Origin: a virus
Lineage: Duplodnaviria > Caudoviricetes
DNA: 64,000 nucleotides
Reading direction: 5' to 3' (one strand)
Virus record (IMG/VR): IMGVR_UViG_3300037400_003286
Made by a program: the position numbers and the translations under genes. Below the pieces are notes generated by a model. The model saw nothing but the letters and a program-made list of their open reading frames with translations. It had not been told where the DNA came from and did no database searches. Below, in pieces: positions 5,550 through 58,085 of this stretch; the stretch's first letter is position 1, and each line of letters starts with the position of its first letter.

Positions 5550-5569
5550 TATTACAAACAATATATCAG

Positions 5570-5599
5570 AAGAGAGAATCGAATGGTTCTCTCTTTTTT
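5570..5599 (+). terminator. Intrinsic terminator
   Basis: agagagaatc-gaat-ggttctctct followed by a T-run. Confidence 0.8.
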
Positions 5600-5618
5600 A
5601 TTTGTCTCGTTAAATTCA

Positions 5619-5626
5619 GATAAATA
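5619..5626 (+). promoter_or_regulatory. Putative late promoter GATAAATA (analogue of T4 TATAAATA)
   Basis: The same octamer lies shortly upstream of many genes, mostly structural: 7742-7749(-), 21496, 27912-27919(-), 27950, 32750, 34683, 45978-45985(-), 48951, 52341, 54404-54411(-), 54776, 54818, 58504, 62099. Confidence 0.7.
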
Positions 5627-5650
5627 GTTAAATGAGTTATCAAAAATAGA

Positions 5651-7153
5651 ATGATTATAAAACCTACATATACAACAGAATCAATAGAAGAACAGCATAT
5701 TGAGGATTTCGATCAGATTATACTTGAAAGTCTTGTATCAAGATATGGTTCCGATATTGTATTCCAGTCTATAAACGAATCTCATTCCTATTATGGATCT
5801 GGCGGAAGGTTTGACCGTACAGGAGGATCCAGGGTAAGCGGTGTAAGTGGATTGCTTCAGTCTTTACCAAGTCTAGCTATAACGACACTTATATGTTGGC
5901 CAGCAGTTCTTCTTGCTGGTCTTGGTGCAATATCACACAGAATGAGAGAAAAATATGAAGACAAGAATTCATGGCTTAACAGATTGAACCCAAGATTCTG
6001 GGTTGATTATCTTGCTACTCCACATAAGAGTAAGTCATCATCTTCATCATCTGGTAAGGAAAAAGAAGGATGGTTCAAGAGATTATCCAAAACCGTTCTT
6101 GGTGGTGCTGCTGGAGCAGGAGCTGTTGCTGGAGCAGCAGCGTTAGCAAAGAATTCAAGTACAGCAGATTCAAGCATAGATCCAGAAGAAGCAAAGAATA
6201 TAGCAATGAATGCTATCTTTGTACCATACTGGGTTACTCTTTCAAATGGTGAGATATTGAGGGTAAGAGCAGATTCTGAGGAAAATGCAAAAACTATGGC
6301 TAATATGATTATAGCATATACAACAAAACCATGCTATAATAAATTGAATGAAAAGATCGCACAAGGTTGTCCTAAATACAAGTTCTATTTTGATGACGGT
6401 GAAATGTGCTATTGGTCAGCACCTACACAAAAGCAGGCTTATAATGAGGCTCTTGATACAAGAAAGGAACTTTGTAAGACAATGAATGAAGTAATGTCTT
6501 CATCTGTTGCACTTGATAATCTTGATGAGCCGAAAGTTGATGGAAAGGTTGAAGTAATCAGAGGAGAAAAGATAGAAGTTCCACAACAGAACAGATTCCT
6601 TAATGTTACTACAGTACAGCCTCAACGTCCAGAGGAACAGACTTTGAAACCTCTCCCGAAACCAATGTATAAGTATGGAAGTTTTTCACCATATAAGGTG
6701 ACATATGCAAATTTCATGCTGAATATCCCAGGGTATCAGGAAGGTGAAGCAATGGAAATAGCTAAGGATTTCAATTCAAGGACAGCAAGAGATACAATCA
6801 GGGATATATATTACAAGATGGATAAGCATTACGATCTTTATAAGGTTGCAATGAAAGATGGTGACATCTATGTAATACCAGGAAAAGGAATCAATGAAGT
6901 GAGTAAGGTTGCTGTTGATTTGTATAATGCAAAGGTTGAATCGATAAAATCAGTATTACAGGATTCAGCACTTGAGGAATATGAAGACTTTCTTACAGAT
7001 TTCGGAGAAAGAATAAATTCCGTAAGAGATGTCAAGTTGATCGATCCAGCAGAAGGAAAAGATTATACAATAAAGAAAGGTGATGAAGCGTCTCTTGTAA
7101 AGATAACAGATAAGGAAGAAAAGAATAAGAGATATCCTAATTTCAAACTATAA
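5651..7153 (+). CDS. Hypothetical virion-internal protein with hydrophobic segments
   Basis: 500 aa; ILES and INES near the N-terminus; hydrophobic LAITTLICWPAVLLAGLGAI and GGAAGAGAVAGAAALA; late promoter upstream. Confidence 0.55.
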   Translation: MIIKPTYTTESIEEQHIEDFDQIILESLVSRYGSDIVFQSINESHSYYGSGGRFDRTGGSRVSGVSGLLQSLPSLAITTLICWPAVLLAGLGAISHRMREKYEDKNSWLNRLNPRFWVDYLATPHKSKSSSSSSGKEKEGWFKRLSKTVLGGAAGAGAVAGAAALAKNSSTADSSIDPEEAKNIAMNAIFVPYWVTLSNGEILRVRADSEENAKTMANMIIAYTTKPCYNKLNEKIAQGCPKYKFYFDDGEMCYWSAPTQKQAYNEALDTRKELCKTMNEVMSSSVALDNLDEPKVDGKVEVIRGEKIEVPQQNRFLNVTTVQPQRPEEQTLKPLPKPMYKYGSFSPYKVTYANFMLNIPGYQEGEAMEIAKDFNSRTARDTIRDIYYKMDKHYDLYKVAMKDGDIYVIPGKGINEVSKVAVDLYNAKVESIKSVLQDSALEEYEDFLTDFGERINSVRDVKLIDPAEGKDYTIKKGDEASLVKITDKEEKNKRYPNFKL

Positions 7154-40034: not shown

Positions 40035-40481
40035 TTAACTCAAAACAACAGTCAACGTACCAGCATCATAAGTATTAACACTCTTATATGATTTATATGT
40101 CTGACCATCAATTGTAACAGTCGTAGGAGCGTTCAATGGCATATCGAATCCGCTTACTGTAGCCTTATTAATACTCATACTATTCGGAACATTGAAGAAC
40201 ACGTATTTACCGTTTGCAGGAACGTTCACATTATAAGTACCAGCAGGACTTGTTCTTGGACTTGCTTTTGCTGTAGCATCTGTATAAGCATCACCACCAC
40301 CATAATAGATAGGATATACAACATATAGTGTTGCATTCTTTGTAACGTGTGATGTCTTGATTAGAGCATCTGCAACGATTGTCTGATTTCCAGTCTCATT
40401 TACGGTAGTATTACCAGCAACACTTGTTGTTGTACTCTGTGCAATCTGGCTTCCGTTTCTTGATAATGTAAAATTGGACTT
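40035..40481 (-). pseudogene. 5'-truncated beta-rich virion appendage gene (YPIYYG...YKSxNxY family)
   Basis: Homologous to the C-termini of 48978..49853 and 53403..54374; has no proper start and abuts a divergent fragment. Confidence 0.7.
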
Positions 40482-41210
40482 GCCGCCGCTATCGGGACGT
40501 TGGCTCAAGATGCTAATATACCATCTTCCGCTACAGATGCATTGAACATTCTAATTGATGATTCTGTATTACTTAAATTGACGACTTCTATGGCAAATAT
40601 CCTTATCGGAGAATCGTCAAATATTTCAGTTACGGCTACAAGTAAGAACAGTGCTTCAAGCATCATAATAAAGAATGGAAGCGGAGAAACAATAGCATCT
40701 GGTTCTGGAAATAGTCTTGTTGGCTCAACTACAGTAACACCAGGTTCTGAAGGGATTCTTGGATTTACAGCAACGGCTGTAGTTAATGGAAAAACGCTTA
40801 ATGCTAAGGTCTATGTCAACTGTGTTGGAAAGATTTACTACGGTGCTGGAAGTGTTTATACTGATGCATCTACATATGCTTCAGCTAAACCGAACCCAGG
40901 AGGAAAATACATTATAACAGTTGATACGGATGGAGAATACATATTCTTCGTTATTCCATCATCAATGACTATTGCCAAGGTCTCAATGGGCGGAATTGAA
41001 ATTCCAATGGAAACAAGTAGCACAACTATTGGTGGAATATCATATAGTGTGTACAAAAGTAAAAATCAATATATAGCTGGAACACATCAGGTTGTTGTCG
41101 AATCTTCGTTTGGAGGAGGTTCTGGTGGTGCTGGAATCAATATCAATACAAGCGACGATACAATGATTTTCGGTGATAAGCAATATAAGCTTATTCCAGT
41201 TGTAGAATAA
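40473..41210 (+). pseudogene. 5'-truncated paralogue of 51260..52090
   Basis: The frame opens after TAA at 40464 with IGLAAAIGTLA, matching IGLANAIETLV in the middle of the 51260 protein; no promoter. Confidence 0.7.
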
Positions 41211-41238
41211 TAAAATTGATGTTTGTTAAATAAAAAAG

Positions 41239-41266
41239 AAAAGCTACTCTGTTGAGTAGCTTTTTT
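41239..41266. terminator. Bidirectional terminator
   Basis: aaaagctactc-tgtt-gagtagctttttt. Confidence 0.85.
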
Positions 41267-41273
41267 AATTTTG

Positions 41274-42170
41274 TTAAGCCTTTACTATTGTTATATTGCT
41301 TGCACTCGTCCAACTTAATCTCTTAGCCTCAGGACTAGTAATAGCAACTCCTTGGAAAGTTACATTCGTACCCATATTAGCTCCAATAGCAATACCAGAG
41401 CACGTAGCTCTACCAGCAGCAATCTGAGCAGCAACAAAATCTTCTACAGTTCCTTCTATGTTACAACCTTGAAGTCTTAAAGTAGTAAGATTCACTAATG
41501 ATCCAAACTCTGTAATGTTACCTACAAAACTTGATACTTTATTATCATTTAAGATAAGGGTTTTCAAAGAAGTTAAATTAGAAAATAGTGCTGGAGTAAA
41601 ATTATTAATAGGTGCTCCAATTTTAGTAGAATTTAAATTAAAAGACGTTAAAGATGTAAAGTTTTGAAGAAAAGAGAAATCTCCATACAGACGATTATTG
41701 TATCCAGAATTTCCAAAATTAATAATATTTAATAATACTGCATTTGATATAGAAGAAACATCAAAAATATCTGTAGCTTCAATACTAATTGCTATTATTT
41801 TAGAATATTGTAATAGTTCTGGCAAATCATTACTAGTGTTAACAGTTGGCATAGACTCTTTTAAATCGTAGTAATTTGAAATATCTACTTTAAACTGTTC
41901 AGAAGCAGTTTGAGTAAAAAATCCAGTATATTGATTAGTTCCATAATGAATAATAGCATGAGTAGAATCTATTAAAGTTGCATCACCTTGAACACGATCT
42001 ATTTTACCACTAAGCAAAGTTAACTCAATATCTCTATCAGCATTGCTGTTCAGAAATCGACAATAATTATTAGATGCTGATTGTAAATCCAATACAACAT
42101 GACCTAGTTTCTTAAGATTAGGGTTAGAAACAGAACCCTTTATTTTTGTAACTAAACAATTTGTACTCAT
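41274..42170 (-). CDS. Leucine-rich-repeat protein (probable appendage tip/adhesin)
   Basis: LTSFNLNSTKI, LTSLKTLILNDNKV, LVNLTTLRLQGCNIEG. Confidence 0.75.
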   Translation of the reverse strand: MSTNCLVTKIKGSVSNPNLKKLGHVVLDLQSASNNYCRFLNSNADRDIELTLLSGKIDRVQGDATLIDSTHAIIHYGTNQYTGFFTQTASEQFKVDISNYYDLKESMPTVNTSNDLPELLQYSKIIAISIEATDIFDVSSISNAVLLNIINFGNSGYNNRLYGDFSFLQNFTSLTSFNLNSTKIGAPINNFTPALFSNLTSLKTLILNDNKVSSFVGNITEFGSLVNLTTLRLQGCNIEGTVEDFVAAQIAAGRATCSGIAIGANMGTNVTFQGVAITSPEAKRLSWTSASNITIVKA

Positions 42171-42189
42171 AATTTTAAAATTTTAAAAT

Positions 42190-44163
42190 TTAATTATTAT
42201 TTACGAATGTATTAATTGAATTTAAGTTTTTTTCTATAAATTCTGCTACCCTCCAAAGATTATCCCTGTATCCAAACATAATAGGGGATGCAGAATAAGT
42301 CTTTATAATAGGATTTTGCCCACTACAAGCCTTTATACAAATAAATCTAACTTCATAACTTCCAGCGGCAATAGTACAATTATCCTCTACAGAATATGAC
42401 ACACTTGGATCGTATGTTGTTTGTGGGCTTGTCTTATAAGTAAACTTATCAATCTTCCAATACTCTTCATTGACTCCTGCATTTCTATTACACGGAGACT
42501 CATTCCATTTAGTATATTCTTTGCTATAATTAATAGAACCTATTCTTTGTACCCATTCTTTAAACAACTTAATAATGTACTCTTTATTAAAAATTCCACA
42601 GTCTACAAGATATTTCCACCTATCTCTAAGTTCTGTATCATAATTAGTATGCAAAAAAGGAAGCATCCAAGACCATTGCCCGCTCCATCCAGCTATTTCA
42701 GTAGGAGCAGAATTTGTAAACATACCTGTAAAATCGTTTCCAAAAGAGCAATCTTTATCATAGTTGTTTACAAACCATTTAACACCATCCCAAGTAGTCC
42801 ATTGCCAATTCTTGCTAAAACCATCATTATCGGCAACAGCCATTTGAACAAGATTATAGTCAACAAGGTTGTCTATATCAAAATATTGTTCAAACAACTC
42901 TTTCTTGTCTTGTGTTGTAGGTGCTGAATTGACTCTTGTTCCATAAGCACTCAGTTCAAGAATATATGTCTTGACTTTATTATCGAATGTAACATCAATC
43001 CAAAAATCTGTAGCTTTATCAAGTGCCTTTGTGTGGTTAGTAGATTTTGCATCATCTGGATTATTGCCTACATTGTCATTAACTCTTGACAGATATACTC
43101 TATTATTTGAACCGACTATCACTCCTTTAGCATAAGGCGTAGTGTTATCCCAAGTTGGAATAACTTCATTTAAAGTTCTAATACCAGCTAGTTCCTGACT
43201 CTTGTTAATATCAGCATCATATCCTTCACCTTCCATTGTTATTAAATCCTCTGGATTTCTGACTTCAAATCCGCTATCAGAAACAGGATTCCAATTTATA
43301 TTCGCAGCATTTCCTTTTGCATTGAAAATAGAAGAATTGTCAAGTCTGCCGTCAAGATGTATATGCTCGGCTTTATCCTCCATATTAAAGTTTGCAGCAT
43401 CTTTCTTTATAAGCCATACATAGATGCCATAGAACTCACCATTAAGATAAACAATACATGGAAAACCGTCAGGCTGACAAAGAGCACCATTGTCAATCTG
43501 AAGATTCATATCATTTATTTGAGGATTTTCAAATTGATTATCGGTAAAAGTATAATCTTTAAATAATCCTTGTTTCCAAGTTCTATCCTTAAATATACCT
43601 CTTGTGTTTGCAACTTCAAGAGCAATTTGATAAGCAATATAACTAACCCCTTTAAAGAAATCAGTATAATAAGCTTTAATGTGATAAGTAGATTGAGATA
43701 CCCAGTCACCAAACTTTACACCAAACTTATCTCCCTTACCTTTTTTACCCTTACTATTATAAACACTACCATCAAACATCTTGATAGAGCCATTCTTTTT
43801 AATGAAAGCCATAGAAGAGTTGCCTTGTGCATTAAAGATGATATTCTTTTTAAAGTAATTACCTTGCATATCATTAAATTCCATAATTGCTTCTAAATCA
43901 TCAGATTTAGATATGGGCCAAGACAAATCGCCAGAAGCATTAGTAAGGTTTATATAAGCAAGTCTTGGGACAGAAAGATGAAGAGGATTTTTACCTTTAT
44001 TTGAAATATAATCGCTCCAATCTACATGACAACCAGGCTGAAATCCAGAATCCTTCAATGCCTGCTGAAATTCAGTCATAGCTTCTCCAGACAAATTTAA
44101 GCTTGTACTTACATCTATCTTGTTGACACACAATGAACCATTTTTATATTCCATTTCAGCCAT
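42190..44163 (-). CDS. CotH-family kinase-like protein with carbohydrate-binding-like inserts
   Basis: AQGNSSMAFIKKN, GFPCIVYLNGEFYGIY, DNDGFSKNW, NYDKDCSFGN; WDNTTPYAKGVIV insert. Confidence 0.8.
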   Translation of the reverse strand: MAEMEYKNGSLCVNKIDVSTSLNLSGEAMTEFQQALKDSGFQPGCHVDWSDYISNKGKNPLHLSVPRLAYINLTNASGDLSWPISKSDDLEAIMEFNDMQGNYFKKNIIFNAQGNSSMAFIKKNGSIKMFDGSVYNSKGKKGKGDKFGVKFGDWVSQSTYHIKAYYTDFFKGVSYIAYQIALEVANTRGIFKDRTWKQGLFKDYTFTDNQFENPQINDMNLQIDNGALCQPDGFPCIVYLNGEFYGIYVWLIKKDAANFNMEDKAEHIHLDGRLDNSSIFNAKGNAANINWNPVSDSGFEVRNPEDLITMEGEGYDADINKSQELAGIRTLNEVIPTWDNTTPYAKGVIVGSNNRVYLSRVNDNVGNNPDDAKSTNHTKALDKATDFWIDVTFDNKVKTYILELSAYGTRVNSAPTTQDKKELFEQYFDIDNLVDYNLVQMAVADNDGFSKNWQWTTWDGVKWFVNNYDKDCSFGNDFTGMFTNSAPTEIAGWSGQWSWMLPFLHTNYDTELRDRWKYLVDCGIFNKEYIIKLFKEWVQRIGSINYSKEYTKWNESPCNRNAGVNEEYWKIDKFTYKTSPQTTYDPSVSYSVEDNCTIAAGSYEVRFICIKACSGQNPIIKTYSASPIMFGYRDNLWRVAEFIEKNLNSINTFVNNN

Positions 44164-44168
44164 ATTGA

Positions 44169-44420
44169 TTACAAATTATATTTTTCGATAATCTTATTGA
44201 CTATTTTTGTTACAGCAACACCATCAATAAAGTAACCTGTTAAATCAATATCTGTTGTTGTATCATCCTGATATCTTCCCCAAAGAATCTTATCTTCAGC
44301 ATCCAATATAACAGACTTAAACTCAGGATTTTCTGTTTCAACTTGAGTATCAATGAATAAATCAACGTCAAAGTTTCCAGCCTGGAATACCAAGTTTGTA
44401 TTTCTTAATATTATTTTCAT
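44169..44420 (-). CDS. Small protein sharing the ENPEF...LD...K(I/V)L(W/Y)G repeat with the upstream fibre
   Basis: ENPEFKSVILDAEDKILWG versus DNPEFVEVHLDGSEKVLYG. Confidence 0.65.
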   Translation of the reverse strand: MKIILRNTNLVFQAGNFDVDLFIDTQVETENPEFKSVILDAEDKILWGRYQDDTTTDIDLTGYFIDGVAVTKIVNKIIEKYNL

Positions 44421-44433
44421 ATTGCAATTTAAA

Positions 44434-45879
44434 TTATGTTTCTTCTATATAAGGAATCATCTTATATTTCTTACCAGATAAGATAAGTATATCATTTGAT
44501 GAATCGAATTGTAACAAAGGATTACCGTTTAAATCGTAAAGTTCATTAACAAATATACCTTTCTTGTCATCTACTACACCTATCTTAGCGTATGTTTCTG
44601 TATCATTTTCATTCTTGAATTCGATTAGTTCAGAATCTTCATTTGTTTTTTCAGCAAATATCTTAGATACCTCTATGTTATCATCTGTAGCCAGGATTAT
44701 AGATTCCTCATCTTCAGTGTTGAATACATTATTGATATTTGATGTCTTATACTTTAACTCAGATATGGAACTATCAACATTTTGTTTTATATCTAATAAT
44801 GATTCATCAACGTATTTCTTGCTTGTATACTTAGTCCAATCGTTAGTATCTAAACTGAAAGAATCTATCTTACATTGATATAAAACAACAGAATCATCGG
44901 AATTAAACGTGAGTATTAATCCTCCGTTTCTGTATTCTTCTGGAACAGCAGCGATTGCTTCCTCCAAAGTGTAATTAATTCCTATGCTTCCATCGTGCGC
45001 ATTTACGTTGTAGAAACGTGTCTCAATTTCAAGGATACTTGCATCTATTTTCTCACCCTTTTCATTAACATAATTCATGATCTGAGAAGGTACACCAGCA
45101 CCGAAATAGAAATCACCATCATTCTTTACACCATAAAGAACCTTACTTGAAGAATCAAGATGAACCTCAGCATACTCTGGATTCTCTTCATAGTAACCAA
45201 GATTATGAATACTTGCATCCAATGCTGCGATACTTGCATCAACTCTGTCAAAACCAGTACTTACACTAGCGTCAAGTCTTGCAATGTCAGCCTTTGTACT
45301 TGCATCCAGAACAGCAATCTCATTTTCAATCTTCTCAATGTTTACATTAATACTGGAATCTATCTCTTCCTTCAGATCTTCAATCTTACCGTCAATCTCA
45401 GCACTCTTCCCATCAACATAACTCTTTACCTGAGAAGGTACACCAGCACCGAAGTAGAAATCACCGTCAGCTCTTACACCGTACAGAACTTTTTCAGATC
45501 CATCAAGGTGAACCTCAACGAACTCTGGATTATCCTGTACAATGTTGTTTGGAACAATACTCCACTTGCTGGTGTCGTTATCCCAGTCCTTTGATTTCAA
45601 CTGGTAAATCTCGAAGTCACCTTCCTTTGAAATAAATGTAAGGATCAATCCACCAACATGATAAGATGCTGGAACTGCGGCAATGGCTTCATCCAAAGTG
45701 TACTTTGCATCAGCACTGCTGTCATGAGCAGAAACATTGTATAACTGCTTGTTCAACTGAGACTGATAACTATTTGAATCATAGTCGAAAATCTCCTGAG
45801 AAGCAGAGACAATGCTACCAGTAGCGGCTGAATGAAGCTCACCAGGTATAGTAACTAATTTACTTGTATCTCTTGCCAT
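44434..45879 (-). CDS. MARDT-family virion fibre/appendage protein, copy 1 (constant 323 aa plus variable C-terminus)
   Basis: N-terminus shared with 52427 and 54908; internal duplications; coiled coil with DAS repeats; contains the crossover site at 44899-44922. Confidence 0.75.
   Translation of the reverse strand: MARDTSKLVTIPGELHSAATGSIVSASQEIFDYDSNSYQSQLNKQLYNVSAHDSSADAKYTLDEAIAAVPASYHVGGLILTFISKEGDFEIYQLKSKDWDNDTSKWSIVPNNIVQDNPEFVEVHLDGSEKVLYGVRADGDFYFGAGVPSQVKSYVDGKSAEIDGKIEDLKEEIDSSINVNIEKIENEIAVLDASTKADIARLDASVSTGFDRVDASIAALDASIHNLGYYEENPEYAEVHLDSSSKVLYGVKNDGDFYFGAGVPSQIMNYVNEKGEKIDASILEIETRFYNVNAHDGSIGINYTLEEAIAAVPEEYRNGGLILTFNSDDSVVLYQCKIDSFSLDTNDWTKYTSKKYVDESLLDIKQNVDSSISELKYKTSNINNVFNTEDEESIILATDDNIEVSKIFAEKTNEDSELIEFKNENDTETYAKIGVVDDKKGIFVNELYDLNGNPLLQFDSSNDILILSGKKYKMIPYIEET
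44899..44922 (-). other. Putative invertase crossover site S1
   Basis: Minus strand GGATTAATAC-TCAC-GTTTAATTCC, an imperfect palindrome; inverted partner at 46151-46174. Confidence 0.7.
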
Positions 45880-46064
45880 GCTTTTTATTTTTTGTTGTTT
45901 TATTTATTTACTCTTTCACAACGTAGAAACAACCGTTTATCATCAAATACCAGGCTGATCTAATAGCTGTGTTTTAGTATTTATCTTGATAAAAGATCGA
46001 TCCTTTTTGTCGTTTATCTCTATTTATTTTCGTTAATTTTTGTGAAAATGAAAAATTTTAATGA

Positions 46065-46174
46065 ATTAATTCCTACGTAGGAATTATACCTATTTATATA
46101 TATTATTTCCGACGTTGGATTTAAACGTTTGGCCTAATTAATTCCTATTATGATTTATACCAACGTTTAATTCC
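46065..46174 (+). other. Putative invertase crossover site S2 (46151-46174) with upstream accessory half-site array
   Basis: TGATTTATAC-CAAC-GTTTAATTCC; TTCC-N5-6-(G/T)GAwTTAwAC units at 46070, 46107 and 46142. Confidence 0.7.
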
Positions 46175-46678
46175 GATGATTTAGTTCAACTATATCAATG
46201 TAAGATAGATTCTTTCAGTTATAATACAGATGATTGGACCCAATATACAAGTAAGAAATACGTTGATTTATATTTGGAAGAATTACAATCAACTGTAGAC
46301 AGCTCTATATCTAATATTGACAGTTCAATTTCAACACTAAGATACAAGACATCTGATATTGATAAGGCATTCAACACTGAAGATGATGAATCAATTATAC
46401 TTGCTACGGATGATAATTTTGAAGTAACTAAAATTTATGCTGAAAAGACAATTGATGAATCAGAAGTATTAGAATTTGCTAACGAATCAAGTGATGAAAT
46501 ATATGCTAAGATAGGCGTAGTTGATGATAAGAATGGTGTAAATACAATAACATGGAAAAATTTTCCATATGCTAAAATAGTACTTAATAATGGTTATGTT
46601 GAAATATATGAAGCTAGTTCTTATCCAAATTATGTATTAACCGCAAAATTTGATACAAATGGTAATCCAGTTGAATAA
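46163..46678 (+). CDS. Silent start-less alternative C-terminal cassette for 44434..45879
   Basis: Open frame TFNSDDLVQLYQCKIDSFS... homologous to residues 324 onward of the MARDT-1 protein, diverging after VVDDK; in-frame TGA at 46151 just upstream. Confidence 0.8.
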   Translation, partial: TFNSDDLVQLYQCKIDSFSYNTDDWTQYTSKKYVDLYLEELQSTVDSSISNIDSSISTLRYKTSDIDKAFNTEDDESIILATDDNFEVTKIYAEKTIDESEVLEFANESSDEIYAKIGVVDDKNGVNTITWKNFPYAKIVLNNGYVEIYEASSYPNYVLTAKFDTNGNPVE

Positions 46679-46682
46679 ATTA

Positions 46683-46711
46683 AAAAAGGATCACTTTATG
46701 TGATCCTTTTT
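46683..46711. terminator. Bidirectional terminator
   Basis: aaaaggatcac-tttat-gtgatcctttt. Confidence 0.85.
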
Positions 46712-47445
46712 TAATTATACTTACTCCATTTCCTTGGCATACCGTCCATTCTGTATTCATCTACATCCTTATACACATCCCATAGATTTATATACTCATA
46801 GATAGTGCATACGTGTACTCCGAACTTCCTTGATAACTCAGCCTTAGACTTCCCTCTAGCTAATCCTATGATAAGTTCGTCGTGATACTTATCCATCTTT
46901 GTATGTTTACTCTTGCTTCCTTTAGGTCGTCCTAAAGTTTTTCCCTTTCTCCTTGCAGTAGCAAGTCTCTCCTTTGTACGCTCTATTATCAATTTTCTTT
47001 CTGTTTCGGCAGCATATCCGTAAATCTGTAATATTAGTTTAGCCATAGGATCATCTTTATCCAGGCTATAGTTTTCCTTGAGTGTATAGATCCCTATTTG
47101 TTTCTCTATACATATTCTCATAATCTCACTGATAATCTGCATGCTTCTTCCGAGTCTGCTTACCTCCGTGCATATGATTTTGTCGCCAGCATTAGCTTCG
47201 CTTATAATCCTCTGTAATTTTCTCTGCTTTATATCTTTAACGCCGCTGATTGTCTCATTCTCCCAGCTATCTACATGCAATCCTCTTGCATCACAATACT
47301 TGTTTATTTCGAATCGCTGGTTCTCTGTGTCCTGATGTGATGTGCTTACTCTGATATAAGCATAGATTTTTCCAACGTTTTTGTTCTTTACTTCATTCTT
47401 CTTTGATTTCCTAATCTTCTTTTTAATTTCTTTTTGTTCTTTCAT
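46711..47445 (-). CDS. Serine recombinase (resolvase/invertase family)
   Basis: YAYIRVST (catalytic Ser), ISG, EVSRLGRS, AETERKLIIERTKE, LGRP, C-terminal HTH. Confidence 0.93.
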   Translation of the reverse strand: MKEQKEIKKKIRKSKKNEVKNKNVGKIYAYIRVSTSHQDTENQRFEINKYCDARGLHVDSWENETISGVKDIKQRKLQRIISEANAGDKIICTEVSRLGRSMQIISEIMRICIEKQIGIYTLKENYSLDKDDPMAKLILQIYGYAAETERKLIIERTKERLATARRKGKTLGRPKGSKSKHTKMDKYHDELIIGLARGKSKAELSRKFGVHVCTIYEYINLWDVYKDVDEYRMDGMPRKWSKYN

Positions 47446-47474
47446 TTATTTTTATTTTTAATAGTTAAATATAT

Positions 47475-48584
47475 TTAAATCATTACAAGATCCAATTCAT
47501 TATTACTGAAGAATCCGTCAATTCGTGGGCATACTTTATTATTATCATAGCACCACATTATGACATCATTCATGTCGAGTTTCTTTCCAGACTTTATTCC
47601 AAGTTCCTTCTTGAAGTTATCCCACATGAATACGCTGTATCCTTCCCTTATCTTTTCTATTGCGTGTTTTCTTCCTGGTTTGTCGTCATCGTATAGATAC
47701 CTTGTCATGAACGGGAAGTCTATCTGCTTTGTTGCACCGCACAATGCTATACAGTTCTTAATAAGGAATGAATCCATCGGGCCTTCTGTAACGGTAACAT
47801 AATTGCTGTAGTCAACAAGAAGGATATTGAAGATCATTGACAATTCATTTATGTTTTCTGGTACAGTCACATTATCCTTCAATATAATCTCGTGGATCTT
47901 CTGTAGTCCGTATGTCTTATACTTTGCATTCTTATCTGTAAAACTCCTTACCTGGATACCGAATATCTTTCCACTTTTCGTGAGGTTAAGCACAAACAGC
48001 TTGTTTGCCTGAGTTGAATACATGAACTTCTCGAAATTATACTGTCTTCTGTTTATTAGGTATGTTTTACCGTAACAGTATTCGTTGCACTCAGTAAGTC
48101 CAAGAAGTTGTCTGAAATACTCCCTGTCAATTGCATAGCTGTCTATCAGTTCATCGTCGTAAAGATATGATACGTTACTTGAGCTTTCCTTAGTTAATCC
48201 AGTATTCTTCTCTGATATGTAGTCAGCCATTCCGAGTGATACGTTCTGTCCGTACATTTTCAGGAATTTCTGTACACTCATGCATGTTCCACAGTTGAAA
48301 CATTTATAAAGGTTCTTGAACTTACCTTCGAGAATAATGTTTCCCCTCTTCTTATAGTTGTCATGTGCGGAATCTCCACAACAAGGTGCAGCAAAAGATA
48401 TCCTGTCTCTGTGTACACGTATCTTTTGTTTTGCTGAATTTCCAGGAAATACTTTCTTTAATATTTCCTGAATCTTTGGTGTAATCTCACTAATGAACTC
48501 CTCCTTCGTCATCGTCAGATGAGAAGAAGCATCGAATGATTGTGAGCTTAAATTAAAAATATCTTTACTATTATCCATTGTCAT
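47475..48584 (-). CDS. gp61: DNA primase (T4 gp61-like)
   Basis: PCCGDS...KRG...YKCFNCG Zn finger; TOPRIM VTEGPMDS and YDDD. Start moved from TTG 48599 because the promoter occupies 48595-48608. Confidence 0.88.
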   Translation of the reverse strand: MTMDNSKDIFNLSSQSFDASSHLTMTKEEFISEITPKIQEILKKVFPGNSAKQKIRVHRDRISFAAPCCGDSAHDNYKKRGNIILEGKFKNLYKCFNCGTCMSVQKFLKMYGQNVSLGMADYISEKNTGLTKESSSNVSYLYDDELIDSYAIDREYFRQLLGLTECNEYCYGKTYLINRRQYNFEKFMYSTQANKLFVLNLTKSGKIFGIQVRSFTDKNAKYKTYGLQKIHEIILKDNVTVPENINELSMIFNILLVDYSNYVTVTEGPMDSFLIKNCIALCGATKQIDFPFMTRYLYDDDKPGRKHAIEKIREGYSVFMWDNFKKELGIKSGKKLDMNDVIMWCYDNNKVCPRIDGFFSNNELDLVMI

Positions 48585-48664
48585 GTATATACGTTGCAAA
48601 TATACAACTTATTTTTATAATATGAAACATATTTTGAATAAATATCTAAACAATATATATTCAT

Positions 48665-48977: not shown

Positions 48978-49853
48978 ATGCCAAATCTTAACAAATATAA
49001 AGCTTATAAAAACATAGCTGATAATTACGATCAGGCGTTAGATCTTGTAAGGGATAAACTTCCTGTTCTTGGTGAACCAGTGGTGGTTCCTTATTATTCA
49101 CCAGACGTTTATGATCCTGATAGGCGAATAAGCATGTTATTTGTTGTAGGTTCGCTTAATGGTGAATTTAAAGTTTTTGAACCAAATGATGACATAATAG
49201 CACACATAGACAGTAGCTACAATGCTATGGAAAATTATGTCGATACAGCAGATTCAAGCCTTCAGGGACAGATTAATGATATAGTTGCATCACAGACATC
49301 AATATCGTTATCTGGATCTCCAAGTGTTATATACGCAGCGACGAATGATCAAACCGTATCATTGTCATCAAAAATTACAACTATCGGGACAATAAGCTCA
49401 CATAAAATACTCAAGGGTTCAACGATAATAAGTTCTGGAACAGGTTCAAATTTGAACGGATCAGATTCAAGCACTAACGCAACAAATGATATTACATACA
49501 CAGCCGAATCTATAATTAATGGAGTTAAGGTAACTAAAAATTCAACAGTATATGTAAGATATCCTATCTATTTCGGTGCTTCTTCAACATGGGATTCCAT
49601 AAACAATGATGCGCATAAGGCTTCAGCAAGAATAAGTCCTGTTGGAACATACCGTATTATTGTGTCACAGAATGGACATAGCGTATTTTTCAATGTTCCT
49701 TCAGAAATGAGTATAACAAAAGCAACAGTAAACGGGTTTGATATGCCGTTTAAGTCATATGTTTCAAAAACAATTGATGGTAAGACATATAAATCATATG
49801 AAAGTGCAAACACATATACCACAAGCACATTCGATGTTGTAATTGTTTCATAA
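48978..49853 (+). CDS. Virion appendage protein, YPIY(F/Y)G family
   Basis: C-terminal ~215 aa nearly identical to 53403..54374; late promoter at 48951. Confidence 0.65.
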   Translation: MPNLNKYKAYKNIADNYDQALDLVRDKLPVLGEPVVVPYYSPDVYDPDRRISMLFVVGSLNGEFKVFEPNDDIIAHIDSSYNAMENYVDTADSSLQGQINDIVASQTSISLSGSPSVIYAATNDQTVSLSSKITTIGTISSHKILKGSTIISSGTGSNLNGSDSSTNATNDITYTAESIINGVKVTKNSTVYVRYPIYFGASSTWDSINNDAHKASARISPVGTYRIIVSQNGHSVFFNVPSEMSITKATVNGFDMPFKSYVSKTIDGKTYKSYESANTYTTSTFDVVIVS

Positions 49854-52246: not shown

Positions 52247-52524
52247 ATTTAAAACCGATAATGGATTTATACATAAAAATAATATGCGTCAAAATAAGAT
52301 ATATAATGAAATGCTTATATTACATTCAAAAAAATATTCAGATAAATAGATAAAGAAACAGTATAATATCTGTCAACTCTGGATAACTGTTACAATAAAA
52401 GAAAAATAATTAAAATAAATCTTGATATGGCAAGAGATACTAACAAGTTAGTTACAATACCTGGTGAACTACATTCAGCAGCAACTGGTGGTATTGTAGC
52501 AGCCGCTGAAGAAATTTTTGATTA
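52247..52524 (+). repeat. Direct repeat of the promoter and 5' end of a MARDT gene (other copy at about 54715-55006)
   Basis: Near-identical leader, e.g. ATATTCAGATAAATAGATAAAGAAACAGTATAATAT and TCTTGATATGGCAAGAGATACTA. Confidence 0.85.
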
Positions 52525-54374: not shown

Positions 54375-54450
54375 AGTTATATATGTTTTGTTTTTACTAA
54401 ACTTATTTATCTATTTATTCAAGATTTTGTAATTAAAATATTAAAGTAAT

Positions 54451-54510
54451 TTCCGTCATGTAATTATATGGAGGTTTATTTCCAACAGTGGAAGTGGACA
54501 GAGTTCTGGA
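54451..54510 (+). repeat. Recombination repeat A (core 54460-54483)
   Basis: 59/60 identical to the reverse complement of 57908-57967; 54471-54508 is identical (38 bp) to 55657-55694. Confidence 0.85.
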
Positions 54511-54714
54511 TAAAACTATGTGCATTTGCACCAAATACTCCTTCACTTTTAACCAGATTATTGCTTGCTGGTGTTGGGATGTCGTCAACTCCCTGCCAAT
54601 TAGAAGGTGTAGTGTTAGTATCAGACATCAATCGGTATTGCACATACTTATTACCAGAAATAGAACTATCACTGTTGGAAATAACCCCCAATATAATTAC
54701 ATGACGGAATTAAT
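54476..54714 (-). pseudogene. Recombination repeat B (core 54677-54700) plus a truncated silent C-terminal cassette
   Basis: ATTAATTCCGTCATGTAATTATATTGGGGGTTATTTCCAACAGTG, then ISNSDSSISGNKYVQY, homologous to ISNSGSGQSSDNKYVQY of the 54908 protein. Confidence 0.75.
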
Positions 54715-54907
54715 ATTTAAAGCCTATAATGGATTTAATTAAGTATTATACATAAAATAATATACGTTCAAATAAGATAAATAATGAAATGTTTATATGA
54801 CATTCAAAAAATATTCAGATAAATAGATAAAGAAACAGTATAATATTTGTCAACTCTGGATAACTGTTACAATAAAAGAAAATAATTAAAATAAAATAAA
54901 TCTTGAT

Positions 54908-57808
54908 ATGGCAAGAGATACTAGCAAGTTAGTTACAATACCTGGTGAACTACATTCAGCAGCAACTGGTAATATTGTGGCAGCAGCTGAAGAAGTTTTT
55001 GATTATACTAAAAACATGTATCAAAAAGATATAAACCAAAAGGTTGCTTATATTAAAGAGGATAGTTCCGTTGCCCCTATTCCTTCATTTAATCCACAAA
55101 GCCAAACTGTTCATCTTGATGAACAAGTTTTAAGTAATGCGCAAAAAAAGCAGGTTAGAAAAAACATAGGATTGGGTAATGGTGATATTGATAGCACACC
55201 TACATCTGGAAGCGACAATGTTGTAAGAAGTGGTGGAGTTTATTCTTCAATGCAAGAATTACGTTCCACAGTAAATCCACAGGTTGGATATTATACATGT
55301 TCCACAGCAGGTAACACAGCAGCAAAAGTAATTGATGCTTCTGGATATACACTTTTGAAAGGTGGTGGTTTACGTGTAAGATTTACAGAAAAGAATACAG
55401 CCGCAAACGCTACATTGAACATTGAGCAGACTGGTGCAAAGTCTTTATATTATAACGGTGTTCGTGTTTCAACAAACAACTCCTGGTATGCAGGGGAACT
55501 TATGACTTTGTTCTATGATGGTGCTGCATTCCAACTAAATAGTTTACCAGATTTAGACGAATATGATGTGTCAGCAAGAAACGGCGGTCAGGCATTCACT
55601 TTTGCTGAAGCAGTGGCACTTGTTCCAGAAGCTTACAGACATGGTGGATTAAAACTGAGGTTTATTTCCAACAGTGGAAGTGGACAGAGTTCTGACAATA
55701 AGTATGTACAATATTTCTGTAATTCTCAAACCTTTACTACTGATATAACTGCTTGGGAGAGGATTAATTTGGAAAATGATGTAATGAATTTGCGAAGTGA
55801 TGTAGGAGAAAGAGAAAGCGAAGTGGTAACGCATACAATTTGTACATCATCTAATTTTACCAATAGTGGGAAAGGCGTAATAGCAGATGAAAGTTCTGAA
55901 AATTTTGGAAACACCACATCTTCTTCTGATTTCTCTTGTTCTGTTTACATGGATATTGAAGACTATGCTGGTCACAATCTAAAATATACAAGATGGATTA
56001 TACCAACTACGTCAGGCTCTAAAGAAAAATCATTCGGAGTTGTTTTCTTTACGCAACAAGCGAAGGAAAATGCCATAAGTGGTCAACAATTCAAGGAAGA
56101 AGGTACTACTGGTTCCTATGAGATTACTTCAATTATAATCCCATCAAACGCAAAATATGTAAGATTTACATTCCCAACTGCGAATCTTGCTAACTGGTCT
56201 GCTTATGTCGAGGAAATAGTGTATGGAGATTACACAAGCGGACTTGGGAAAAAAGTACAGGATTTGGAATCGGAAGTTGATGCACTTGTGGAAACAACTA
56301 AAGAGGGGTATGATGAGCAAGTATTCAAGTATTCAACCGTTGCAGATAATGGCTACGGAATGCTGCCATCTTCTATAATTCTTTCTCAAGAAGGTGATTA
56401 TATAGAGTTTGATGCTATAATCAAGAACTTAAACACTCAGTTCAGCCGTCTTAGTACTGGTACAGGGACAAAGCCAGGCGTCTATGTCTATAATGGAATA
56501 CAAATAGCTTTCAGAGCACCAAGCACTTCCGCTACGGTTACCTATACGAGTTCTACCGAATTTAGAGTTGATAAAAGACATACTTATAAATTATTGCTTG
56601 ATTCAATCTCAAATGGAACAAGAACATATAAGGTGTATTTAGATGGTGTAGAGATTCCTCTTTCTTTGTCAAATACTGTTGATTGGGTATTTGATTGTAT
56701 CGGTTACTATGGAGGTTCAACCAATGGCGCAGTATGGTATTACCTGAAATACAAGTCGGCTGGAGTTGAGAATACCCTTACAAGATTCCAGACAACCCTT
56801 ACCAATGTACAGAACATTGTAGATACCACGGTCACAAAGCATATCTATGGTATAAATGAACTCACTGATAAGATAGATGAATATTCTGTACCAAGTGGAA
56901 TCCTCCGTTATGACAGTGAGGAAGAAAAGTTTGAATTCTTGTCAAGATATGGTAAAACTGATAAGTATTTCTCTTTCATTGTTAAACACGCCATAAATGG
57001 TACTGTTCTTCAGAATCTGTGGCGGGTAATGGGTGGCAACCTTTATACTTACGATGATGGGTTTAACCTTGTACATTCTACAATCTATGGAAATTCAGAG
57101 AACGAATGGGCTGCACTTTTCAGTGAGTTCAAAGCAGCTAATAACTATACAGGAGGCTATCATGGTGGCGAGATGATTACAGATTCTGGGTGTTTTGTTA
57201 AGTTCTTCGCAGATGGTATAGAGATTACGGATTTGTCATCTGATTTTGAGTTCCCATGTGAAAAGTTTGAATACATCCAGTATTCTGCATTGCATGAGGT
57301 ATATGGTCCTGATGGAGAAACTCCTGTAGTTGGTCAGCCTATCTTCGCCTATCATACAAAGCGCACTTCGTTCCAAGATGCTCAGATGGATTGTCGAAAT
57401 GATGTAGCATTTATCCTTGATGTAACCCGTAGAAGTTATCATGCAGGACTTTTCTCGCCTGAAAGAAATATTGGCACTTCAGCAATCATTCCTTTCGGTG
57501 TTATAGCAACTTTGTCAGGCTCTGGCAATTTCACTATGGCAACATACGGTGAATATGTAAGTGAAATCAAGTTCTGGAATCAGACAAATAGATGTGGTGT
57601 TAACATTGACAGTGAATTTATTGCTGGAATCAATGAAGATGAAATGTCTGTTCTTGGTACAAGTTCAGGACAGGCAGAGTTTGGTGTTTTAGATAATGGC
57701 TCTGGAAGGACTGATGCAAAATATTACAAGAGAACCAACAAGTCTGTTGCAATCACAAACGGTGATGTAATATCTACTCGTCACTCGGCTAAATTCATGG
57801 CAATTTAA
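54908..57808 (+). CDS. MARDT-family fibre/receptor-binding protein, copy 3 (constant 250 aa plus variable C-terminus)
   Basis: Phage tail-fibre-like segment YYTCSTAGNTAAK...ATLNIEQTGAK; internal crossover site in GGLKLRFISNS; beta-rich C-terminus. Confidence 0.75.
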   Translation: MARDTSKLVTIPGELHSAATGNIVAAAEEVFDYTKNMYQKDINQKVAYIKEDSSVAPIPSFNPQSQTVHLDEQVLSNAQKKQVRKNIGLGNGDIDSTPTSGSDNVVRSGGVYSSMQELRSTVNPQVGYYTCSTAGNTAAKVIDASGYTLLKGGGLRVRFTEKNTAANATLNIEQTGAKSLYYNGVRVSTNNSWYAGELMTLFYDGAAFQLNSLPDLDEYDVSARNGGQAFTFAEAVALVPEAYRHGGLKLRFISNSGSGQSSDNKYVQYFCNSQTFTTDITAWERINLENDVMNLRSDVGERESEVVTHTICTSSNFTNSGKGVIADESSENFGNTTSSSDFSCSVYMDIEDYAGHNLKYTRWIIPTTSGSKEKSFGVVFFTQQAKENAISGQQFKEEGTTGSYEITSIIIPSNAKYVRFTFPTANLANWSAYVEEIVYGDYTSGLGKKVQDLESEVDALVETTKEGYDEQVFKYSTVADNGYGMLPSSIILSQEGDYIEFDAIIKNLNTQFSRLSTGTGTKPGVYVYNGIQIAFRAPSTSATVTYTSSTEFRVDKRHTYKLLLDSISNGTRTYKVYLDGVEIPLSLSNTVDWVFDCIGYYGGSTNGAVWYYLKYKSAGVENTLTRFQTTLTNVQNIVDTTVTKHIYGINELTDKIDEYSVPSGILRYDSEEEKFEFLSRYGKTDKYFSFIVKHAINGTVLQNLWRVMGGNLYTYDDGFNLVHSTIYGNSENEWAALFSEFKAANNYTGGYHGGEMITDSGCFVKFFADGIEITDLSSDFEFPCEKFEYIQYSALHEVYGPDGETPVVGQPIFAYHTKRTSFQDAQMDCRNDVAFILDVTRRSYHAGLFSPERNIGTSAIIPFGVIATLSGSGNFTMATYGEYVSEIKFWNQTNRCGVNIDSEFIAGINEDEMSVLGTSSGQAEFGVLDNGSGRTDAKYYKRTNKSVAITNGDVISTRHSAKFMAI
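55646..55694 (+). other. Recombination site C inside the fibre gene
   Basis: GGATTAAAAC-TGAG-GTTTATTTCC imperfect palindrome plus a 38-bp match to repeats A and D. Confidence 0.8.
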
Positions 57809-57838
57809 CATACTTTTTGTAATAAGTATTTACATAAT

Positions 57839-57873
57839 AAAAGATCGATCTAATTATAAGATCGATCTTTTTT
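57839..57873. terminator. Bidirectional terminator
   Basis: aaaagatcgatct-aattata-agatcgatcttttt. Confidence 0.85.
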
Positions 57874-57907
57874 GTTTTATAATCTAATAGTTATGTACAG
57901 AATTATT

Positions 57908-57972
57908 TCCAGAACTCTGTCAACTTCCACTGTTGGAAATAAACCTCCATATAATTACATGACGGAATTAAT
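57908..57972 (-). repeat. Recombination repeat D (core 57935-57958)
   Basis: Inverted copy of repeat A; reads RFISNSGS-stop in the fibre frame. Confidence 0.85.
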
Positions 57973-58085
57973 GGTAATATACAACTTTATTTTGATATTG
58001 AAAAATGAAACAAGATTTTTCCTCATTCTCTTTCACGTATTAAATAAAAGATGTATATTTGCAACGGAATATAAATGAAACTTAT

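Follow-up and report, generated by a model that had tools for sequence, protein, structure and literature searches.

A putative serine-invertase switch moving the promoter and constant part of a fibre-like gene in rumen giant phages, and its probably locked copy in a bovine gut phage

Introduction

Does a phage of the bovine gut exchange the end of a fibre-like protein by inverting the part of the gene that stays constant, and can it still do so? The question is raised by a 64,000-nucleotide (nt) stretch of DNA from a tailed virus (Caudoviricetes; IMG/VR record IMGVR_UViG_3300037400_003286), referred to throughout as the window, in which a fibre-like open reading frame (ORF) of 481 amino acids (aa), a start-less cassette homologous to its 3' end and the gene of a Gin-like serine DNA invertase lie side by side at 44434–47445. 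An initial annotation, made from the letters of the window, had described a switch in which the promoter and the constant 5' half of the gene flip, exchanging the C-terminus of the protein and toggling a downstream operon (state A as assembled, state B when flipped). The analysis presented here makes it probable that the locus truly belongs to a family of switches that rumen giant phages build around a serine invertase, and that the copy in the window is impaired or locked. The anatomy of the locus, the conservation of its sites, the covariation of a core base, a decay series among relatives and the absence of state B from public assemblies are established below; flipping itself is what we infer from these sequence patterns.

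Invertase-driven tail-fibre switches are a classic form of host-range bet-hedging in phages, and the locus extends this design to giant phages of ruminant gut bacteria.

Results

Anatomy of the locus

The elements on which the question turns are, from left to right:

44434–45879, minus strand: fibre-like ORF of 481 aa (ORF list)
44434–44910, minus strand: expressed C-terminus A, codons 324–481, with the conserved tail GKKYKMIPYIEET at its end (homologue and cassette alignments)
44911–45879, minus strand: constant 5' part, codons 1–323, within the putative invertible segment (ORF; the N-terminal ~45 aa are common to the genes starting at 54908 and 52427)
45880–46150, minus strand: upstream region within the segment (~280 nt), with a late-type motif and a GGAATT-type half-site array (motif enrichment; highly conserved in five relatives)
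46163–46678, plus strand: silent cassette B, 171 codons and stop (homology to other cassettes)
46678–46716, both directions: two-way terminator hairpin common to cassette B and the invertase gene (perfect 17-bp inverted repeat, 5-nt loop, flanking A/T runs)
46711–47445, minus strand: Gin-like small serine DNA invertase, 244 aa (PF00239 Resolvase, 1.2e-34; phrog_125 'DNA invertase', 1.2e-48)

Gene and cassette are connected by inverted homology. The arms, 44554–44921 and 46152–46540, are complementary at 76–84% over ~370 bases, and the exact 19-mer ACGTTTAATTCCGATGATT occurs twice in the 64-kb window, at 44892–44910 (minus) and 46163–46181 (plus), a pair of matches that was obtained in 0 of 100 shuffles. 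This 19-mer connects codon 324 of the 481-aa gene with the start-less cassette, which is in frame and encodes protein with 65% identity to residues 321–442 of the ORF. The homology had been described as starting exactly at 44910 and 46163; the shared 19-mer does reach these positions, but the homology begins 11 nt earlier, at 44921 and 46152, in an imperfect half-site. Other elements of the initial annotation were confirmed. The cassette lies upstream of the gene in the opposite orientation, with an in-frame TGA at 46151–46153 and no start codon at its 5' end, and the hairpin covers the stop codons of both the cassette and the convergent recombinase gene. The segment between the sites (44911–46162, ~1.25 kb) holds codons 1–323 and the only late-promoter motif of the block (45978–45986, minus), while the alternative 3' ends stand outside.

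The PF00239 domain of the invertase spans residues 27–169, followed by a weak HTH_28 match at 195–223, and its best solved relative is Gin of phage Mu (4m6f, 1.1e-16), to which the catalytic RVST motif could be aligned. The gene adjoins cassette B in the window and also stands beside the block in the related contig L002; its product presumably acts on the switch sites described next.

Crossover sites and predicted core

Two sites bound the segment:

44899–44922, minus strand: crossover site 1, a 24-bp imperfect dyad of the halves GGATTAATACTC and ACGTTTAATTCC, in the codons G-L-I-L-T-F-N-S, predicted core CA (dyad score, related copies)
46151–46174, plus strand: crossover site 2, with the halves TGATTTATACCA and ACGTTTAATTCC, left half non-coding, in-frame TGA at its start, predicted core AA (dyad score, related copies)

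Sites within expressed genes read GGATTAATACT-N followed by ACGTTTAATTCC and encode G-L-I-L-T-F-N-S, and those ahead of silent cassettes read (T)GAWWTATACC-N followed by ACGTTTAATTCC, with a left half that is non-coding yet kept. The right half-site and the 16-mer ACGTTTAATTCCGATG are identical in every related copy while nearby codons vary at synonymous positions, which argues for constraint on the DNA itself. In the protein, site 1 falls within a conserved beta-strand motif in the middle of a domain (strand 322–327 of the predicted model).

The highest dyad score (0.54, versus ~0.27 elsewhere) is reached when the centre is set between base N and the A of ACG, and the hix and gix sites of the known invertases have the form ...AAACC-NN-GGTTT...; the dyad centre and this likeness together place the 2-bp crossover core at 'NA'. 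Base N is equal in partner sites, being C/C in L001, L004 and L012 and G/G in L002/L005, L006 and L009, and the 30-nt context of L004 and L002 is identical save for this base. The window departs from the pattern, with N = C in the gene versus A ahead of the cassette (CA versus AA), while both 24-bp sites are intact apart from the core and have 19 identical bases in common. Hin and Gin need an identical 2-bp core, and a mismatch stops religation in the recombinant configuration. For the pair in the window the prediction is thus poor inversion or none, and the mismatch would be what blocks it. The covarying crossover base also supplies a simple criterion, open to test, by which to judge if a copy is still able to flip.

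A GGAATT-type array at ~46067–46148 flanks the silent site and consists of the palindrome AATTCCTACGTAGGAATT, the pair GGAATTAA-N13-TTAAATCC and a near-copy of the right half-site at ~46115–46126 (minus). It is retained even in the cassette-less L006, and a symmetric array of the same type is centred on the palindrome GGATCGATCGATCC in L009 (1273–1375). The array may provide accessory recombinase sites or a promoter operator.

The same type of site recurs at a second switch in the window (54440–58010), around a 966-aa gene at 54908–57808, where a site composed of GGATTAAAACTG and AGGTTTATTTCC lies at 55646. Three of the four sites there (A, C and D) have a GA core, which is shared by the partners near 54451 and 57967, and the AATTCC motif is found upstream of the silent copies as it is at switch 1. 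One invertase probably serves both loci, and the different cores (GA versus CA) could prevent recombination between the two switches.

Modules of the relatives and their decay

Downstream of the fibre-like gene, module A continues with three genes:

44169–44420, minus strand: 83-aa gene, first after the fibre gene in every module (81–89% identical to the 83-aa genes on both sides in L001, L002 and L004)
42190–44163, minus strand: CotH-like gene of module A, 657 aa (PF08757 CotH, 3.2e-08; 41% identical to a 700-aa protein at the same position in L006)
41274–42170, minus strand: leucine-rich repeat (LRR) gene, 298 aa, last of module A (PF12799 LRR_4, 4.7e-08; terminator at 41237–41266 behind it)

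The gaps between the fibre-like, 83-aa, CotH-like and LRR genes are 13, 5 and 19 nt, and the first terminator of the operon lies only behind the LRR gene (41237–41266). As for a promoter of their own, which would uncouple the three genes from the orientation of the segment, neither of the two promoter motifs of the window occurs on the minus strand at 41274–44434, in agreement with the proposed expression of all three genes in state A.

The 481-aa protein has 16 close homologues, and the contigs of its relatives reveal the design from which the window appears to derive. L001, L002 and L004 have the layout [X, CotH-like, 83 aa, silent cassette] on the minus strand, then the segment, then [fibre, 83 aa, CotH-like, X] on the plus strand, and their inverted homology starts at the site found in the window, covers the cassette and the 83-aa gene and reaches into the CotH-like gene. 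All silent cassettes of the relatives are open to the conserved tail GKKYKMIPYIEE. The single late motif of the block stands ~105 nt ahead of the fibre start, inside the site-bounded segment, in L001, L002, L004 and L005, and the silent side of the relatives is an intact module of ~3.3 kb with no recognisable promoter. The simplest reading of this layout is that the silent module would be expressed after the middle segment flips. Two complete outward-facing modules around one central promoter motif bear out the inside-out topology proposed at the start, in which the constant part inverts; the normal outcome in the family would, from these layouts, be a swap between two operons and not an on/off toggle. 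L009, a short contig, carries a head-to-head pair of silent cassettes separated by only 103 bp, which means that more than two alternatives exist in some relatives. In L005, which is related to L002 and has low coverage, the silent-module genes at 3789–5965 are split (366 and 63 aa versus 451 aa; 155 versus 244 aa), which reflects either sequencing error or decay of the silent side.

In the mechanism that we propose for the family, the Gin-like invertase would recombine two inverted 24-bp dyad sites, one within the GLILTFNS codons of a tail-fibre-like (receptor-binding) gene and the other ahead of a start-less cassette. The flipped segment of ~1.25 kb would bring along the single late promoter and codons 1–323, and each orientation would fuse this driver to one of two outward-facing modules, each comprising a fibre C-terminus, an 83-aa gene, a CotH-like gene and a fourth, LRR-like gene. 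As a small constant part and its promoter flip, each alternative can be a complete module of several genes, whatever its size.

Module A of the window is complete and presumably expressed, and module B has been reduced to a cassette without the conserved tail or partner genes. The first ~129 codons of cassette B align with the other cassettes, and its tail is unique, with a 36-aa insert and the end ...NGNPVE; the last ~25 residues, which all complete cassettes of the family keep, expressed or silent, are missing, and the partners of module B (83-aa, CotH-like and fourth gene) are absent from the window. This state is one step in a decay series beside the primase gene. In L002, invertase and primase come after two full modules, in the window they come after the truncated B, L012 has a 60-codon stub that abuts the primase gene, with the invertase absent there, and L006 has a bare site. 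The flanks of L002 and the window are collinear on both the capsid-gene side (90%) and the invertase-primase side (82%). The relatives form a natural series from full switch to bare leftover site, which helps the study of switch loss. With module B cut down and a changed base in the predicted core, the phage of the window is most likely fixed or almost fixed in state A, and the invertase gene has been kept probably because the second switch at ~54.4–58.0 kb also uses it.

Search for the flipped state

Three assemblies are in state A and none is flipped; two of them, L010 and L011 from two other samples, are 100% identical to the window through site 1. The fusion of the constant part with cassette B was found 0 times among 5.8 billion proteins. 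The IMG/VR search returned no relatives and no state-B junction, the phage record collection held no near-identical DNA, and a scan of JGI metagenomes yielded only three loci. No protein was found that equals the constant part joined to a known silent cassette of any relative, the cluster members of the homologues differ by point changes only, with no flipped forms among them, and no pair of near-identical genomes in opposite states was found. The comparison of sequencing runs with the window covered Logan consensus contigs, in which minority orientations are hidden.

Several candidate signals of inversion were set aside. An 'opposite strands' joint of 44890 to 46385, met in two other samples, extends for only 33 letters to one side and is best read as a relative whose expressed cassette has a B-like stretch, not as the junction of an inversion. 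The contig break of the source sample at 44924–44928 does not fit the position of the expected branch point, and the Logan contig L003, which starts within 4 nt of the silent site of L002, does not start at a flip-induced branch position and is uninformative. A minor-strain contig of 1155 nt (depth 7.12) may have either configuration, recombinant or not. L010 and L011 both end at window position 45819, inside the conserved N-terminal coding region; this shared end is probably an assembly-graph branch caused by co-occurring relatives and not a rearrangement.

Discussion

Is the copy in the window still a switch?

Several observations weigh against the reading that the locus belongs to the family of switches and has been impaired or locked in the window. 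No orientation polymorphism was seen for any family member in the consensus contigs and protein databases, so that activity is something we infer even for the family. The position of the core is derived from dyad symmetry and the likeness to hix and gix, and cleavage one base further on would void the mismatch. Cassette B is still an unbroken open frame of 171 codons. Among 33 positions of its homologous part that are otherwise invariant, 2 carry changes unique to B, a number that other cassettes reach as well; without an excess of unique substitutions, B may have been truncated recently or still be in use. Lastly, an observation in favour of the reading is ambiguous: the segment at 44912–46161 aligns reversed to L002 6715–7947 (80%), so the fibre gene points away from the invertase gene in the window and towards it in L002. 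This reversal would fit a flip of the segment, but the cassettes are paralogous mosaics, and for that reason a flip of the whole block could account for it instead. Cassette A and its 83-aa gene are nearer the capsid-side module of L002 (82% nt and 87% aa, versus 79% and 81%), and cassette B is nearer the silent cassette of L002.

The best surviving alternative is that the switch is fully active in the window, flipping at useful frequency between a state A with the full fibre and the 83-aa, CotH-like and LRR proteins and a state B that consists of a fibre with a short B tail and the silencing of the three cargo genes; this would amount to on/off phase variation in how the virion is decorated. 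The otherwise intact 24-bp sites with their 19 identical bases, the intact and adjacent invertase gene, the open cassette with no excess of unique changes and a clean terminator behind it, and the lack of either promoter motif on the minus strand at 41274–44434 are all as such a switch would have them. We nevertheless regard it as doubtful, as B has lost the last ~25 conserved residues and all partner genes, the core is mismatched here and matched in six relatives, the constant-plus-B protein and its junction are absent from public data while three assemblies are in state A, and lineages with the same gene order went on to lose both cassette and invertase. The initial claim that the window copy toggles as described was not supported, given the truncated cassette, the mismatched core and the lack of a state-B junction or fusion protein, and read-level evidence is needed before this locus is annotated as an active phase-variable switch.

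It is very improbable that there is no site-specific switch at all, the cassette being the remnant of an inverted duplication reshaped by homologous recombination or gene conversion and the invertase acting only on the switch near 55 kb. In favour of this reading, the homologues have mosaic variable regions, and the expressed genes of P0004, P0005 and P0009 contain strings typical of B (DDLVQLYQCKI; ESEVLEF.NESS.EIYAKIG); in L004, identity between the expressed and the silent cassette reaches 92% over 403 nt, versus ~78% elsewhere, which suggests conversion, and the flipped state was not found. Against it, the homology of partners always starts at the same 24-bp dyad, which is invariant even at synonymous positions and keeps its left half in non-coding DNA. 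Partners also covary in their core base, the second switch has sites of the same type with the AATTCC motif upstream, and the relatives keep complete, promoter-less four-frame modules intact.

Comparison with known switches

The locus most closely recalls the Mu G segment with Gin and its kin, P1 C with Cin, e14 P with Pin and p15B with Min, which likewise have a small serine invertase beside the switch and short, inverted, imperfect dyads. In Mu, the alternatives Sv-U and Sv'-U' each have their own downstream gene, and the relatives described here likewise combine one constant 5' part with alternative 3' parts that have downstream genes of their own. The Mu G kind differs in that its segment carries the alternative 3' ends, whereas here the segment carries the promoter and the constant part and the alternatives stand outside, facing outward; to our knowledge, all textbook tail-fibre invertase switches flip the variable ends. 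Further differences are that the alternatives here are four-frame modules of ~3–4 kb with CotH-like and LRR-type genes, that the site lies in the middle of a folded domain, that a half-site-like array accompanies the silent site, and that one invertase apparently works for two loci. Sites of the Mu G type are ~26 bp long and their enhancer is bound by the host protein Fis. The recombinases of that family combine an N-terminal catalytic domain, with its catalytic serine, and a C-terminal helix-turn-helix, and populations contain both orientations side by side.

Inversion of a promoter and 5' part between alternative 3' genes is found in Campylobacter fetus sapA, Mycoplasma pulmonis vsa and the susC/susD shufflons of Bacteroides fragilis. 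There too a single promoter with a conserved 5' end moves and the silent alternatives lack promoter and start, but these are cellular loci for surface antigens or nutrient uptake that use RecA or tyrosine recombinases and not a Gin-type enzyme on a virion gene. A survey of gene-altering inversions describes the arrangement in which one upstream part is kept with several downstream parts (PMC9881135). The serine invertases of the Hin/H-segment and of the Bacteroides Mpi invertons likewise flip a promoter-bearing segment, yet that segment is a promoter only and acts as an on/off device, while here 323 codons would travel along and the coding sequence would be rejoined in frame. The Rci shufflon differs in its tyrosine recombinase, its several segments and its 19-bp sfx repeats; the locus here has a serine recombinase, and only two sites of the switch-1 kind occur in the window.

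A literature search returned no paper describing this phage group or layout, and we regard this topological variant of the Mu G/P1 C kind as new, with its interest at the level of the family; the window copy is most likely decaying and locked in state A. A broader picture, which is speculative and as a whole seems unlikely to us, is that giant phages of the rumen possess a host-range switch whose driver flips between modules, in which at least two loci per genome, sharing one enzyme, are kept apart by their cores (CA versus GA), a res-like array takes the place of the Fis enhancer, and the truncated B is a true OFF state for CotH-like/LRR virion cargo.

Promoter motifs and the nature of the proteins

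The late-type motif AGATAAATA (45978–45986, minus) has 14 copies in the window versus 2.2 expected; each copy checked faces a downstream gene, mostly structural genes, and the motif is accordingly treated here as a putative promoter. A second motif, GTTGTATATTTG, has 9 copies versus 0.9 expected, mostly ahead of replication-type genes, and is similar to the −7 promoter element of the Bacteroidota. Judged from this motif, the host is probably a Bacteroidota bacterium, which makes a Fis-bound enhancer doubtful. The Bacteroidota-type −7 pattern alone was not decisive, and a scan for sigma-70 promoters (35 matches versus 33.9 expected) was uninformative.

The 481-aa protein has no match to a Pfam or PHROG family. 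Its N-terminal ~45 aa recur in database proteins with SGNH hydrolase, metallophosphatase, esterase or CotH domains. The predicted model contains two copies of a small domain, a long helix and an ill-defined, beta-rich C-terminus, and crAss-like tail-fibre and tailspike-type proteins match parts of the fold at low TM-scores. Coiled-coil noise was all that a profile search of solved structures produced, and a language-model atlas gave weak leads with scores <0.9. The protein may reasonably be taken for a putative fibre or receptor-binding protein. A third conserved fibre N-terminus (MARDTNKLVTIPGELHSAATG...), starting at 52427 (plus), meets stops after ~55 codons and is a broken member of the gene set.

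The window derives from a bovine gut metagenome and encodes a T4-type major capsid protein, a prohead protease, an anaerobic ribonucleotide reductase, a DnaB-type helicase and an SbcC-like nuclease. The 481-aa protein is found on a 196-kb contig and its close relatives on contigs of 300–320 kb.

Other rearrangements around the block

A 157-aa ORF at 40035–40508 (minus) is similar to the C-terminal portion of a further fibre-like gene, the second that relatives carry (L006 13863–14771, 81% nt), and may be another orphan C-terminal cassette. It shares a 71-nt inverted repeat (49770–49840) with the end of the ORF at 48978–49853, and a contig of another sample joins 40472 to ~45088. In two further cattle-gut samples, 39985 and 46702 stand on one contig, separated by just 17 other letters, so that the whole 6.7-kb fibre block is absent there between the 458-aa gene and the invertase gene. 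In L001, L004 and L013 the block is placed elsewhere relative to the protease and capsid genes, and these genes are inverted in L001; as judged from these gene orders, either the fibre block moves or large inversions occur.

Three of the four runs show a several-fold rise in contig depth at 47421–47821 and 48594–48627, and loose ends of many contigs, at 48594 and 48627, surround the early-promoter motif GTTGTATATTTG. The short element around these positions is common to many different phages in these samples.

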